From a virus, in the UHGV virus genome UHGV-0272165: a DNA stretch of 37,116 bases; one strand, given 5' to 3'. A program made the position numbers and the translations under genes. Below are positions 1,912-37,116 of this stretch, piece by piece. Position 1 is the stretch's first letter; every line of letters begins with the position of its first letter. Below the pieces are notes generated by a model. It worked only from the letters and a program-made list of their open reading frames with translations, did not search any database and was not told the DNA's origin.

Positions 1912-3909
1912 CTATTCTGACAACGCATCAGACTTAACACCCTGCGTCATAGCGTTAATAGCCTTTTGTGCCTGCTGCATGGCTTTCTCAAACGCTGTTG
2001 ATCCGTGTGTGGTATTTGCCATTCGTAGCATTGCATTTCTGAATGGCTCACTCTCATAGGCGCGAGCAAGAAGGCCGTAGCTTACTGCTGCGCCAGTTGT
2101 CGCCGGGTTCATTGCCGTACCATATCCGATAATGAACGGGATAGTTTGCTGCCCTGTTGGTGTTGTTACTGCCGCTTTTGCAGCCTGCTGCGTGGATTGC
2201 AGGTAGTTTTTCAATCCCCTCAGGTAAGCAGCATCCTGCCCCTTAAATGTGATACCCGTTTGGTTTTGCAGGATGTTAAGCTGTCGAAGGAACTGGTCAG
2301 GGGATCCACCTGATTTCTCTATCGCCTTTCCAATGATGCCATTGCGCATTTGCGCTCTTCCAACGCGACCAACTGAGTTATACAGCGTCTTAATTTCCGA
2401 TTTGTTCTTGCTGAATAGCATGTTATTCACAACTTCCGGCGTCAGGTCGCCTTTCATGAGAACATTCTTCAGCCTGGTATTCTTTAGTTTCGCCGCTTCG
2501 TCAGCGTAGACGGCATTGGCCTGCTGATATTTACGAAGAGTATCATTGCCAAGATTCTGACCAATGGCACCATTGATATCGTCGGTCATCGCCTTATAAA
2601 CGCGCTGAATGGCAGCATCGGAACGGTTTGGTAACACTGGTCGCTCACCCTTCACGTCCATTCTGAACTGACTGCGCAGGTCGCTTAATTGCTTCAAATC
2701 CAGATTTACCGGACCATCAGGGCCAGCATTGCGAACAAGCTCATCACGATATGACTGAAGTTTTGAAATTGTCTCGTTATCAGCCACCTTACCAAGCTTC
2801 TGCAGATTAGATATCTCAGTATCAATCTGCTGAATTGCTCGCGCAGGCTGAATGTTGACTCCCGCCATTGCATTCTGAACCTGCTCAAGACGGTTCCCAG
2901 CAGCACGACGAATTCCTGATGTTTTCGCTTTAAGGCTGTCAATAACAACCGCTGGATCATACTCACCGAATTTATCAGCAAATCTCTGCACCAACTGGCT
3001 TCTCGCTTCCTGTTGCGTTGCTCTCATTCCGCTTGTGCCAGCCAGAGGGATATTTTCTGCTGTAGTCTGCGCCATTTTTCCGACGCGGGAAGTGGGTTGT
3101 AACAGGTCTGTGGTGTGCAGAGGCACTCCTTCACGCTCTGCAAACCTGATAGCCTGTTGCGCTTCTGGCGCAATAGCACCACGAACACCACGATAAGCAG
3201 CACCTAATCCACGTCCGGCAGCGTTAATAGCTCCGCCAGCAAGAACGCCAACGCCTAAGTCGGTGGCTAGTGCTTCCGCATCATCTTTCACACTGTTTGC
3301 AGCAAGTGATCCAACTGCGTTTTCAGCGAGAAGGCGAGTTGCACCCTGAGCAATTCGACCAGCAAGTGTTGGTGCCTGTGCTGCCGCTCTCTCAACGCCA
3401 GCAGGGGTGAGGTAAGGCAATGCTTCAGCAAATATCCTTCCCTCTGTCGTTTGTGGAGTCAGCGCGCCTTGCTGAAGGCCAAAGTCCTGCTCTAATCCCT
3501 GAGTTGTTACTCGTGGAGCTGGTTGATATGTACCATCGCCAATGCCGAGTTTACCGCCAGCCCATGCCGCTGCGCTTGTTACAGCATCGGCAACTGATGC
3601 AGGTATGTTTGCCACGTTTACGCCAGCCTGCACCAGTCCGCGACCAGTCTCTTTCACTGCTTCACCAAGGTCAGACATAAATCCACTTTGCTGTGGTTGT
3701 TGCTGTGCTACTGGTTGCTGTGTCTCCACTGTCTGCACAGATGGCAATGGATAGGCAGCATAGAAAGCTTGCTTAGCCTGCTCTGCATTTTCTCCGGCTT
3801 GTGGTGCCACGACTTCATTGAAGTATTGCTCCTGAGCCTGCGCTTTTTGTTCTGGTGCTAACGCCTGATACTGTGGAGAGGCGATAACATCTTTCCATGC
3901 TTTAGCCAT
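1912..3909 (-). CDS. DNA ejection / internal virion protein (P22 gp16-like by position)
   Basis: 665-aa Ala/Gln-rich ORF immediately upstream of the tailspike, last of three consecutive ejection-protein-sized ORFs as in P22-like phages. Confidence 0.65.
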   Translation of the reverse strand: MAKAWKDVIASPQYQALAPEQKAQAQEQYFNEVVAPQAGENAEQAKQAFYAAYPLPSVQTVETQQPVAQQQPQQSGFMSDLGEAVKETGRGLVQAGVNVANIPASVADAVTSAAAWAGGKLGIGDGTYQPAPRVTTQGLEQDFGLQQGALTPQTTEGRIFAEALPYLTPAGVERAAAQAPTLAGRIAQGATRLLAENAVGSLAANSVKDDAEALATDLGVGVLAGGAINAAGRGLGAAYRGVRGAIAPEAQQAIRFAEREGVPLHTTDLLQPTSRVGKMAQTTAENIPLAGTSGMRATQQEARSQLVQRFADKFGEYDPAVVIDSLKAKTSGIRRAAGNRLEQVQNAMAGVNIQPARAIQQIDTEISNLQKLGKVADNETISKLQSYRDELVRNAGPDGPVNLDLKQLSDLRSQFRMDVKGERPVLPNRSDAAIQRVYKAMTDDINGAIGQNLGNDTLRKYQQANAVYADEAAKLKNTRLKNVLMKGDLTPEVVNNMLFSKNKSEIKTLYNSVGRVGRAQMRNGIIGKAIEKSGGSPDQFLRQLNILQNQTGITFKGQDAAYLRGLKNYLQSTQQAAKAAVTTPTGQQTIPFIIGYGTAMNPATTGAAVSYGLLARAYESEPFRNAMLRMANTTHGSTAFEKAMQQAQKAINAMTQGVKSDALSE

Positions 3910-19279: not shown

Positions 19280-19355
19280 TGGTGCTGGTTAACGGACTTG
19301 AACCGCTACCCATTCGCTTACAAGGCGACTGCTCTACCATTGGAGCTAAACCAGC
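19280..19355 (-). tRNA. tRNA-Thr (anticodon UGU)
   Basis: Hand-folded 76-nt cloverleaf: 7-bp acceptor stem GCTGGTT/AACCAGC, D-arm GCTC/GAGC, anticodon loop CUUGUAA, T-arm AGCGG-TTCAAGT-CCGTT, encoded CCA. Confidence 0.7.
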
Positions 19356-19360
19356 ATATT

Positions 19361-19435
19361 TGGCGGGACAGCGTGGACTCGAACCACGATAAGAAGGTTA
19401 ACAGCCTTCCGTAATGACCTTTATACGACTGACCC
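19361..19435 (-). tRNA. tRNA-Asn (anticodon GUU), possibly slightly degenerate
   Basis: Hand-folded 75 nt: anticodon stem GAAGG/CCTTC, loop CUGUUAA, T-arm CGTGG-TTCGAGT-CCACG, encoded CCA; acceptor stem has one U-U mismatch and the D-stem is only 3 bp. Confidence 0.55.
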
Positions 19436-34578: not shown

Positions 34579-34878
34579 ATGGCCTGTTCAACATTCAACC
34601 CTCTAACGTTACAGAAATACCAGCCAGCCCCTGAAGATTTATGCTCACTGTGTGGCGGAAATCATGGAAAAGCCGCCATGATCGAATGTAAGGACAAAAT
34701 CCACATTTGCCTTAATTGCGTTGATGTCCTCGTTGATATCAAAAATGAGAGAGAAGATAAAAAGCGTAGCGAGGCTATTCGCGCATTAGATTCATGGATG
34801 CGAGATGGGTATAGTGCTGCGCAAATTTATGACCTCGCAATATCAAAAGGCGAAATACCAGGTGTGCGAATCGAATAA
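34579..34878 (+). CDS. Hypothetical zinc-finger-like protein
   Basis: Start at ATG after GGAGA; CSLCGG...HICLNC Cys/His cluster. Confidence 0.4.
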   Translation: MACSTFNPLTLQKYQPAPEDLCSLCGGNHGKAAMIECKDKIHICLNCVDVLVDIKNEREDKKRSEAIRALDSWMRDGYSAAQIYDLAISKGEIPGVRIE

Positions 34879-34898
34879 GAAGCGCACTCAAGCATCTT

Positions 34899-35081
34899 TT
34901 GGAAAAATCACAAATGCACTTCCGAGTCACAGGTGAATGGAATGGAGAGCCATTCAACAGAGTTATCGAAGCAGAGGACATCAACGACTGCTATGACCAC
35001 TGGATGCTGTGGGCGCAGATAGCACATGCAGACGTAACCAATATTCGAATTGAAGAACTGAAAGAACACCAAGCCGCCTGA
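34899..35081 (+). CDS. Hypothetical small protein (60 aa)
   Basis: ORF only; followed by a terminator-like hairpin. Confidence 0.3.
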   Translation: MEKSQMHFRVTGEWNGEPFNRVIEAEDINDCYDHWMLWAQIAHADVTNIRIEELKEHQAA

Positions 35082-35092
35082 TGGCGGTTTTT
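35068..35092 (+). terminator. Intrinsic terminator-like hairpin
   Basis: GCCGCC-TGAT-GGCGG followed by TTTTTTAT. Confidence 0.45.
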
Positions 35093-35103
35093 TATTACCT
35101 GAT

Positions 35104-35119
35104 TTGCAGGTTCGATTCC
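35104..35119 (+). other. tRNA T-arm-like fragment (TTGCAGGTTCGATTCC), possible att-site remnant
   Basis: 16-mer matching the T-arm of tRNA-Arg (argW) as I recall it; no complementary stem follows. Confidence 0.35.
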
Positions 35120-35138
35120 CTATTCGGAGATAGCACTC

Positions 35139-35339
35139 ATGCAACACGAACTACAGCCTGATTCACTGGTTGATTTGAAATTCATCATGGCTGATACTGG
35201 CTTCGGTAAAACCTTCATCTATGACCGGATTAAGTCCGGCGACCTGCCAAAAGCCAAAGTTATCCACGGGCGAGCAAGATGGTTATATCGTGACCATTGT
35301 GAATTCAAAAATAAGCTCTTAAGCCGCGCCAATGGGTAA
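35139..35339 (+). CDS. AlpA/Xis-family small DNA-binding protein (putative excisionase)
   Basis: 66 aa with AlpA-like pattern (TGFGKTFIYDRIKSGDLPKAKVIHGRARWLYRD); last phage-like gene before the att-like sequence. Confidence 0.55.
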   Translation: MQHELQPDSLVDLKFIMADTGFGKTFIYDRIKSGDLPKAKVIHGRARWLYRDHCEFKNKLLSRANG

Positions 35340-35412
35340 AATAGCGGGTAAAATATTTCTCACATCTAAAAAATACCATTCCAATCAATCCCCTGCCGCT
35401 TCAAGTAGATGT

Positions 35413-35427
35413 CTGCAGGGGACACCA
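35413..35427 (+). other. tRNA 3'-end-like core (CTGCAGGGGACACCA); probable prophage-host junction
   Basis: 15-mer matching the 3' end of tRNA-Arg (argW) from memory, with no upstream tRNA body; phage-like sequence to the left, host-like to the right. Confidence 0.45.
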
Positions 35428-35868
35428 GATACCCTTCTAACAATATCTACCTTCGCCCCGTAAAAGATGGGTTTGGCAGCACACTTGCCCTATATCTACT
35501 CATTTTTACTGCAACAGGTTGAAATCTCAGCACTGTCAGAAAGCGCTGATGACTAAACAGCCCTGGGCCGGGCGATGTAACCATCACACAGAATCCTGAT
35601 AGCGAAATATGGCGTGACTCGATACTTCACTCTGCAATGCATTCCTTGATGAATTCGCAGGCCCGTGATACACGGGACAGGTCGCTGAATGACGACAATG
35701 TCCTGGAAATCAGCGAACCGCGTATCCGGAGTACATTTGAGCGACTGTACCAGAACATGAATGAGGCGTTTGGATTAGGTGATTATTAGTTGGGCTAAGC
35801 ATTTTAGTATTATTATTTTCCGGTTGAGGGATATGGAGATATCGACAACAACCGGAAAAAGTTTACGT

Positions 35869-37116
35869 CTATATTGCTGAAGGTACAGGCGTTTCCATCA
35901 CTATTTGCTCGCGTTTTTTACTCAGGAAGAAAATGCCAAATAGCAACATCAGGCAGACAATACCCGAAATTGCGAAGAAAACTGTCTGGTAGCCTGCGTG
36001 GTCAAAGAGTATCCCAGTCGGCGTTGAAAGCAGCACAATCCCAAGCGAACTGGCAATTTGAAAACCAATCAGAAAGATCGTCGACGACAGGCGCTTATCA
36101 AAGTTTGCCACGCTGTATTTGAAGACGGATATGACACAAAGTGGAACCTCAATGGCATGTAACAGCTTCACTAATGAAATAATCCAGGGGTTAACGAACA
36201 GCGCGCAGGAAAGGATACGCAACGCCATAATCACAACACCGATAAGTAATGCATTTTTTGGCCCTACCCGATTCACAAAGAAAGGAATAATCGCCATGCA
36301 CAGCGCTTCGAGTACCACCTGGAATGAGTTGAGATAACCATACAGGCGCGTTCCTACATCGTGTGATTCGAATAAACCTGCATAAAAGACAGGAAAGAAT
36401 TGTTGATCAAAAATGTTATAGAAAGACCACGTCCCCACAATAAATATGACGAAAACCCAGAAGTTTCGATCCTTGAAAACTGCGATAAAATCCTCTTTTT
36501 TTACCCCTCCCGCATCCGCCGCTATGCACTGGTGATCCTTATCTTTAAAACGCATGTTGATCATCATAAATACAGCGCCAAATAGCGAGACCAACCAGAA
36601 GTTGATATGGGGACTGATACTAAAAAATATACCGGCAAAGAACGCGCCAATAGCATAGCCAAAAGATCCCCAGGCGCGCGCTGTTCCATATTCGAAATGA
36701 AAATTTCGCGCCATTTTTTCAGTGAAGCTGTCAAGCAAACCGCAGCCCGCCAGATAACCCAGACCAAAAAAGAGCGCACCCAGAATTAGACCTACAGAAA
36801 AATTGCTTTGCAGTAACGGTTCATAAACGTAAATCATAAACGGTCCAGTCAAGACCAGAATGAAACTCATACACCAGATGAGCGGTTTCTTCAGACCGAG
36901 TTTATCCTGAACGATGCCGTAGAACATCATAAATAGAATGCTGGTAAACTGGTTGACCGAGTAAAGTGTACCTAATTCCGTCCCTGTTAATCCTAGATGT
37001 CCTTTCAGCCAAATAGCGTATAATGACCACCACAGCGACCAGGAAATAAAAAAGAGAAATGAGTAACTGGATGCCAAACGATAGTACGCATTTCTGAATG
37101 GAATATTCAGTGCCAT
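35869..37116 (-). CDS. cscB: LacY-family (oligosaccharide:H+ symporter) MFS sugar permease, probably sucrose permease CscB
   Basis: 415 aa, 12 hydrophobic segments; strong resemblance to LacY (GTRLYGYLNSFQ, NRVGPKNALL); N-terminus MALNIPFRNAYYR matches my recollection of CscB. Confidence 0.7.
   Translation of the reverse strand: MALNIPFRNAYYRLASSYSFLFFISWSLWWSLYAIWLKGHLGLTGTELGTLYSVNQFTSILFMMFYGIVQDKLGLKKPLIWCMSFILVLTGPFMIYVYEPLLQSNFSVGLILGALFFGLGYLAGCGLLDSFTEKMARNFHFEYGTARAWGSFGYAIGAFFAGIFFSISPHINFWLVSLFGAVFMMINMRFKDKDHQCIAADAGGVKKEDFIAVFKDRNFWVFVIFIVGTWSFYNIFDQQFFPVFYAGLFESHDVGTRLYGYLNSFQVVLEALCMAIIPFFVNRVGPKNALLIGVVIMALRILSCALFVNPWIISLVKLLHAIEVPLCVISVFKYSVANFDKRLSSTIFLIGFQIASSLGIVLLSTPTGILFDHAGYQTVFFAISGIVCLMLLFGIFFLSKKREQIVMETPVPSAI

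Follow-up and report, generated by a model that had tools for sequence, protein, structure and literature searches.

A tRNA-like box upstream of the excisionase gene torI at the right end of a P22-like prophage in argW

The window analysed here, the whole 37,116-nucleotide stretch of the virus genome UHGV-0272165, passes near its right end from phage into host DNA through a short series of features (Table 1): the last small gene of an early-left operon, a terminator, a tRNA-like 16-mer that we call the T-arm box, the excisionase gene torI, a second tRNA-like segment and a host spacer in front of the permease gene cscB. This region is very probably the attR junction of a seemingly intact prophage, P22-like (Lederbergvirus) and of the Sf6/HK620/Kapi1 group, located at the 3' end of argW, a tRNA gene, and equipped with a KplE1-type recombination module. 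The feature is already known, being the ordinary right junction of a P22-like prophage in Escherichia coli argW, and the only mildly new point is the conserved tRNA-like box before the excisionase gene.

Table 1. Coordinates of the features at the right end of the window.
Feature	Coordinates	Strand	Basis
Last small open reading frame (60 aa) of the early-left operon	34899..35081	+	List of open reading frames; phage matches
Intrinsic terminator, AAGCCGCC-TGAT-GGCGGTTT plus T-run (stem 35071-35090, T-run to 35093)	35071..35093	+	Terminator scan, RNA fold
T-arm box TTGCAGGTTCGATTCC, exact argW nt 46-61	35104..35119	+	Sequence match; conserved element of the torI-module leader, not a crossover site
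Shine-Dalgarno sequence GGAG of torI	35126..35129	+	Sequence; GGAG kept in all box-bearing leaders
torI, 66-aa recombination directionality factor (excisionase)	35139..35339	+	Identical to K-12 TorI, HK620 HkaC and Sf6 gp18
Functional P arm of attR	35316..35427	+	Published attR-IHF2 primer site to core
attR core CTGCAGGGGACACCA, argW nt 61-75 (crossover/identity segment)	35413..35427	+	Homology switch; HK620/Sf6 attP core annotations; KplE1, Kapi1, SPC-P1
Host argW-cscB spacer	35428..35868		436/441 identical to prophage-free locus L005
DUF4942 gene remnant	35637..35789	+	Pfam DUF4942, E = 8e-6
Host sucrose/oligosaccharide permease of the major facilitator superfamily (cscB)	35869..37116	-	RefSeq annotations under matches

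Both tRNA-like segments match argW (reference taken from the prophage-free locus) exactly, and each occurs only once in the window. The T-arm box corresponds to the end of the variable loop, the 5' T-stem, the T-loop and two bases of the 3' T-stem, and the downstream 15-mer to the remaining 3' T-stem, the acceptor strand and CCA. They lie 293 bp apart, with the excisionase gene between them, and abut in argW with a 1-nt overlap; if joined, they would form the 3' 30 nt of the tRNA. A preliminary description made from the sequence of the window had noticed that the two together would reconstitute the 3' half of a tRNA-Arg gene. Both fragments are real and derive from argW: an exact 16-mer from argW would fall by chance within +/-400 bp of the core with a probability of about 2e-5, and for the 16-mer only 0.01 matches would be expected in the window even with two mismatches allowed. 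ARAGORN reported no tRNA in 34800-35900, where these two pieces of a tRNA-Arg stand alone, and a gathering-free Rfam search of the region (E <= 5) returned no tRNA or other RNA family. A weak full-length match to STnc130 on the minus strand (24 bits, with 55 needed) was rejected, as it consisted of an A-run, a hairpin that no U-tract follows on that strand, and some scattered identities.

The right end of the prophage is fixed by a switch in homology at the second segment. In megablast comparisons with phages and E. coli chromosomes, the phage genomes Kapi1, HF4s, N7, Sf6 and HK620 matched up to 35427, and prophage-free argW-cscB loci matched from 35413 on; because phage homology stops and host homology starts there, we regard 35413-35427 as the sole crossover core. 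In the HK620 and Sf6 records, the 15 bases common to phage and host carry the label attP core; they are also the KplE1 core and the Kapi1 att, and the ends of Salmonella SPC-P1 map to the core as well, its end repeats being the core sequence. The core of KplE1 is reported to be 16 nt long, and the experimentally supported att site of Kapi1 comprises 17 bp at the argW 3' end. At the junction in the window, the module's core motif CTGCAGGGGACACCA(T) is found with G as its sixteenth base, as in prophage-free hosts of the csc type.

Upstream of the core, the published attR-IHF2 primer site was located at 35316-35335, and two predicted IntS arm-type repeats, GGGTAAAAT, were recognized by sequence at 35334-35342 and 35346-35354; these repeats are homologous to the repeat_region annotated as 'attP' in HK620. 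The P arm is 98-99% identical to those of KplE1, HK620 and Sf6, only 73 bp separate the torI stop codon from the core, and the core, arm repeats and torI are all intact, at 98-99% identity to functional phages. A 43-aa open reading frame (35332-35463, +), the equivalent of HK620 hkaB and Sf6 gene 17, spans the att core; integration alters its C-terminus, and it is probably not a real gene. Some other copies carry altered cores. In IHE3034 (L008) and G3X16-2 (L010), which are CUS-3-type/KplE1-type copies, the attR core has a 1-nt deletion (CTGCA-GGGACACCA; alignment A1, columns 377-391), by which excision could be impaired, and in Escherichia sp. E1V33 (L013, ~3275-3290) an identical torI is followed by the core CTGCAGGGGACAATC and then by unrelated DNA, so that its right junction may be different or rearranged.

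The gene between the two segments, previously described as Xis-like and AlpA-like, is indeed an excisionase gene. Its product is identical to K-12 TorI at 66/66 residues and aligns over all residues 1-66 with PDB entry 1Z4H ('Tor inhibition protein', E = 6.6e-43), a winged-helix excisionase whose gene lies directly upstream of the P arm. The second label did not hold: Pfam gave no Phage_AlpA (PF05930) match at E <= 0.01 and just HTH_17 at 16.9 bits, below its 27-bit cut-off, and 'AlpA-like' is therefore a loose label for TorI, whose homologues are named 'AlpA family' in some databases.

The terminator that had been proposed at the end of the early-left operon was recovered by both scan and fold, and it insulates torI from that operon. 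Between prophage backbones, the hairpin is kept with a compensatory stem change (CCGCC/GGCGG versus CCGCA/TGCGG) when the window is compared with STEC409 (L009) and strain 1190 (L175), and it is degraded in K-12 KplE1. The 60-aa reading frame that it follows matched no Pfam family; its homologues in Kapi1-like phages and in the CUS-3 record, where it is ECRS218_0063, occupy the corresponding place. According to the KplE1 literature, the excision switch depends on torI expression, and as of 2010 the torI promoter was described as uncharacterised; a later paper reports that Rho inhibition increases KplE1 copy number, an effect consistent with upstream termination gating torI. In Klebsiella (L116/L117, 1268-1701), a torI homologue with 85% identity overlaps the stop codon of an upstream TraR/DksA-type zinc-finger gene (ATGA), with neither terminator nor box, and translational coupling is there an alternative route of excisionase expression.

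The free phages HK620 and Sf6, K-12 KplE1 and all the E. coli torI contexts examined carry the T-arm box at one place, 19 nt before the torI ATG. Because it is present in these phages and in KplE1, it is not a local scar. Among the prophage backbones compared, similarity to the window is lost within the terminator, at 43-52 nt before the ATG, so the box is the first element of the conserved module. It lies outside the published attR substrate, a 135-bp fragment starting at 35316 that recombines in vitro in work on the KplE1 module, and is thus dispensable for in-vitro excision.

The distribution of the box was followed in torI homologues of 60-100% protein identity, drawn from 25 genomes at species level, about 50 viral contigs and several individual contigs; a first viral-contig scan yielded identical-TorI loci only, and scans with diverged queries proved more useful. 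All homologues keep a core of the form [ACT]TGCAGGGGAC[AG]CCA, 76 nt after the stop codon, and in most of them TTCGATGT, a degenerate T-loop, stands immediately left of it. A T-loop thus already exists in the tRNA-like segment of attP, which makes the upstream box a second T-arm copy rather than a missing half. The lineages that carry the box, at TorI identities down to 70%, are those of E. coli, Enterobacter, Citrobacter, Serratia, Pantoea (two types), Edwardsiella and Hafnia; it is absent, through replacement or clean deletion, from Klebsiella, Dryocola, Tatumella, Rouxiella, Cronobacter, Mixta, other Pantoea and Arsenophonus.

In nine diverged box-bearing Enterobacterales lineages, the T-loop part GGTTCGATT is invariant. 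Pairwise identity in the same lineages is 0.49 at four-fold torI sites (20% of them invariant), 0.40 in the adjacent spacer and 0.34 upstream, and the T-loop core of the box is by this comparison conserved well above the neutral rate. The T-stem part varies (GCAGG, CCAGG, ACAGG, ATAGG, GCCGG), each version being one or two changes from argW. To judge from the conserved TGC of the cores, which imply a GCA...TGC stem in the host tRNA, the boxes do not track the local tRNA T-stem, and we infer one ancestral argW-derived piece with constraint on its T-loop part. Tandem box duplications occur in three viral contigs, all with 85-89% identity to a Serratia-type query (P0014): in L145 and L147 (~45 to 10 nt upstream of the torI homologue) and in L149, the paired boxes read CAGGTTCGATTCCCGT/CAGGTTCGATTCCCAT and TGTTCGATTCCCGC/GTTCGATTACCAGC.

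A structured RNA or a promoter was not apparent in the leader. RNAalifold did not recover a T-arm hairpin across the box-bearing leaders, and in explicit pair counts 67% were paired with an 8-nt loop, against 60% in shuffles, and 53% with a 7-nt loop; a weak pairing of the box with the Shine-Dalgarno sequence shows almost no covariation. A sigma-70 promoter scan of 34700-35900 found none.

The box contains, at 35110-35114 on the torI strand and in the same orientation as the attL sites, the pentamer GTTCG, which together with GATCG and GTCCG defines TorI sites in the KplE1 work. At least one of these pentamers occurs in 13/29 distinct leaders and at least two in 5/29, compared with 2.8 and 0.12 leaders in shuffles, and 0/2000 shuffles reached five leaders with two pentamers; as the leaders share ancestry, these counts are not independent. 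All matches lie on the torI strand, where their density is about 12 times that of adjacent DNA, and other lineages have two exact pentamers, tandem boxes or second GTTCG/GTCCG motifs beside the Shine-Dalgarno sequence. From its conservation, the box is likely to be a functional cis element. Our best specific guess, which we offer tentatively and hold at somewhat below even chances, is a TorI-binding (operator) or other regulatory site in the torI leader. On a broader and equally tentative proposal, possible if rather less than probable, it would be a tRNA-derived cis element of torI-type excisionase genes, a predicted TorI and/or IntS site arising from a copy of the target tRNA T-loop, in which the pentamer GTTCG itself lies, and it would exert feedback on excisionase expression and help to set prophage stability.

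Several observations weigh against a TorI site. The window has one exact pentamer only, plus ATTCG (35122-35126), one mismatch away, just before the Shine-Dalgarno sequence; the flanks of the box are unlike those of the five attL sites that have been mapped; the conserved block, GGTTCGATT[CT]C, exceeds the TorI core motif in length; and the box is missing from many lineages, such as Klebsiella with its translationally coupled torI. In the accessible papers, we found no data on TorI binding at the box and no statement on TorI autoregulation.

The alternative that survives best is that the 16-mer has no function and is a fossil, left by an old att/tRNA rearrangement and passed on together with torI. 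This would explain why the box is unnecessary for in-vitro excision and missing from many torI lineages, why point variants occur within E. coli together with a few decayed copies (L138, L151 and G3X16-2), and why no conserved hairpin, promoter or RNA family was found at it. Nine consecutive positions are nevertheless invariant where only 20% of four-fold sites are, the box is either intact or wholly replaced and rarely decayed, and both the independent tandem duplications and the second GTTCG/GTCCG motifs speak for a function; we therefore consider the fossil unlikely. An ancient origin of the box from an att-site rearrangement is possible.

The HK620 and Sf6 records suggest another role, that of a cII-activated pI promoter for int in lysogenisation, as both mark a promoter and a cII site (TTGCCTGATTTGC) that overlap the 16-mer; by our own reading, the T-stem also resembles a -35 hexamer in some lineages (TTTACA, ATGACA). 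In the window and in K-12, however, the first TTGC is TTAC, giving TTAC-N5-TTGC here in place of TTGC-N6-TTGC. The repeats of lambda-type cII sites are spaced by N6, not N5. The upstream half is moreover missing in the Edwardsiella, Hafnia, Serratia and Pantoea versions that retain the box, the sigma-70 scan was empty, and the only -10 candidates overlap the Shine-Dalgarno sequence and are without the consensus T at position 6. The KplE1 papers assign intS a mapped promoter of its own, overlapping attL. A pI promoter at the box is thus improbable.

The preliminary description had remarked that no integrase-sized reading frame exists in the window, and none of the open reading frames of the 37-kb window encodes an integrase, those of middle size being P22-type structural, replication, CI-like and Rad52-like genes; no int stands between xis and att, or beside xis, as in lambda. 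From the premise that int belongs between xis and att, it had been suggested that the prophage is int-deleted and anchored, with xis alone remaining at this end. The premise fails for this family. By annotation, HK620 and Sf6 have the torI homologue first, then the attP core and then int; in the papers on KplE1 and Kapi1, attP is placed between xis and int, hence the two genes at opposite prophage ends, and the same papers describe the KplE1-type module as common to CUS-3, HK620, Sf6 and many argW prophages.

The window itself begins at the stop-codon side of the tailspike gene (86-1747, Head_binding domain). In strain 1190, the closest syntenic chromosome, the 2.2 kb to the left of the window's edge hold an acyltransferase gene, intS and a complete argW, followed by yfdC; the 38.9-kb prophage of that strain runs from attL core and intS to torI and attR core, and its right end (terminator - 16-mer - torI - core - DUF4942 remnant - cscB) agrees with the window both in the 293-bp spacing and in the host flank. 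An integrase just outside the window with a normal att arrangement, which the preliminary description had named as evidence that would speak against it, is thus found in a relative, not in this genome, and intS beside a regenerated argW is a feature of that relative's attL, outside the window. Because torI and int lie at opposite prophage ends and the syntenic relative has intS beyond the left edge, the missing integrase would, judging from relatives, be the result of where the window was cut. Two points weigh against this reading of an intact prophage: no complete E. coli genome has this exact mosaic, the best left-end match covering 84% of the query at 94.8% identity, and the left end lies outside the window, so that intS and attL are here supplied from relatives. 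An int-deleted prophage would equally leave the window without an integrase, and related prophages do carry defects, such as the 1-nt core deletion of the IHE3034/CUS-3-type and G3X16-2 copies, but the far-end int is by design in the HK620/Sf6/KplE1/Kapi1 family and the recombination elements present here are intact, which makes a deletion very improbable.

For an intact prophage of this kind, the following cycle can be proposed. The phage circle, as known for the family, would have the order early-left operon - terminator - torI - P arm - 15/16-bp core - P' arm - intS, and integration at the core would, again as in the family, leave intS beside a regenerated argW (attL) and torI with the P arm beside a 15-bp argW 3' fragment (attR); in this copy, intS would lie ~1-2 kb beyond the left edge of the window. 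The lysogen would keep IntS low and autoregulated from its own promoter in attL, and torI would be silent behind the terminator. According to the KplE1 work, attL carries five TorI sites and TorI represses intS. Upon induction, read-through from the early-left operon might allow TorI to be made, and TorI at the GTTCG-type attL sites would then direct IntS and IHF to recombine attL with attR. The attP junction in the excised circle would read GATGT-CTGCAGGGGACACCA-TTTATCAG.

It had also been suggested that the two fragments form a composite junction made in this host, either by tandem integrations at argW or as a 293-bp xis cassette within an att identity segment. Part of this stands, as the downstream piece is the true core; the upstream piece, by contrast, is a conserved element of the module that stems from the same tRNA. 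The fragments do abut in argW, tandem elements do occur at the site, and the scheme is possible as an ancient origin of the module. As a local event, however, it is hardly credible. The same arrangement and 293-bp spacing are found in HK620, Sf6 and K-12 KplE1, at 98-99% identity, and in strain 1190, and an arrangement shared by free phages and other hosts predates this integration; the box extends to modules with 70% TorI identity, attP already has a degenerate T-loop beside the core, and none of the tandem-integration, aberrant-excision and deletion schemes worked through on paper yields X-16mer-torI-core. The tandem case is seen in Hafnia (L118, 1501-3134), where a torI homologue, the core and a P4-type integrase gene (Arm-DNA-bind_3 plus Phage_integrase) are contiguous in a 4.9-Mb chromosome, an attP-like junction that indicates tandem elements at that site.

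The remaining alternative, that the 16-mer itself is the att core, stems from the CUS-3 record (CP000711), which begins and ends at copies of the 16-mer (L001 1693-1708, L004 1-16) labelled attL/attR core, and these are a genuine 16-bp direct repeat, one in argW at attL and the other in the torI leader. Chromosomes 100% identical to the CUS-3 right end (IHE3034; L008 3494-3860) continue past the 16-mer to torI, the core (with its 1-nt deletion) and host dsdC, from which we conclude that the annotation is wrong: it follows a decoy 16-bp repeat and omits torI and the true core. A second crossover site at the 16-mer can be dismissed, given also the position of the homology switch, the mapped ends of Kapi1 and SPC-P1, the activity of the 135-bp attR without the 16-mer and the finding of an argW 5' part-16mer-torI fusion in 0/5426 E. 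coli genomes.

Beyond the core, the host-like DNA that had been noted as leading to the permease proved to be the argW-cscB spacer of prophage-free strains (Table 1). It contains a 50-aa DUF4942 fragment which, because it is also found in prophage-free strains, is an older relic, left by another element at a locus that is hypervariable. The rest of the window comprises a complete P22-like gene set with a CI-like repressor. The closest phages are IME10, HZ41, HF4s, Sf6 and HK620, the best of which cover about half of the window at ~97% identity, and the window is a new mosaic of the Sf6/HK620/IME10 group. Genes for tRNA-Thr(TGT) and tRNA-Asn(GTT) lie at 19280-19435 (-); two tRNAs are reported at the corresponding place in Kapi1, ahead of the lysis module.

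An excisionase gene without an adjacent int is therefore what is expected of argW phages of the Sf6/HK620/KplE1 type and gives no sign of a crippled prophage. The 16-bp T-arm repeat can mislead the calling of prophage boundaries, as it did in the CUS-3 record. If the box were a TorI/IntS operator, it would address the control of torI expression, left open by the KplE1 literature as of 2010, and would illustrate how the sequence of a target tRNA can be recruited as a regulatory site.

Among the closest known systems is the recombination module of KplE1 (CPS-53) of E. coli K-12, described by Panis, Mejean and Ansaldi, with an identical TorI, 98.8% identity over 35089-35427 including the 16-mer, arm repeats and core, the same target tRNA and core, and the layout attL-intS ... 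torI-attR. KplE1 is, however, a 10-kb defective remnant beside dsdC whose terminator hairpin before the box is degraded, whereas the window represents an apparently complete P22-like genome flanked by the csc (sucrose) island. HK620 and Sf6, to whose group the preliminary description had rightly assigned the prophage together with CUS-3, share the xis-attP-int order and, at 98.2-98.5% identity, the terminator, 16-mer, torI (hkaC/gene 18), P arm and core; they have the free-phage attP form, with P' arm and int after the core, whereas the window has the integrated attR with host DNA there, and the rest of their genomes is another mosaic, these two phages covering 36-37% of the window. Kapi1, an argW-integrating, O-antigen-modifying P22-like phage, is 98.4% identical over the last early-left gene, terminator, box, torI and core and likewise has int and xis at opposite ends, with two phage tRNAs preceding its lysis genes, but its host flank is dsdC rather than cscB. 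The E. coli K1 phage CUS-3 shares the early-left end, terminator and 16-mer and has an HK620-type int next to argW; its record, bounded by the 16-mer copies, is without torI and the true core. With lambda and P22, the module has in common a heterobivalent tyrosine integrase, arm-type and core-type sites and a small winged-helix directionality factor. In those phages, however, xis and int form an adjacent, co-transcribed pair to one side of attP, whereas in the KplE1-type module attP separates the two genes, the int promoter is autoregulated and control is exerted through expression of the directionality factor.

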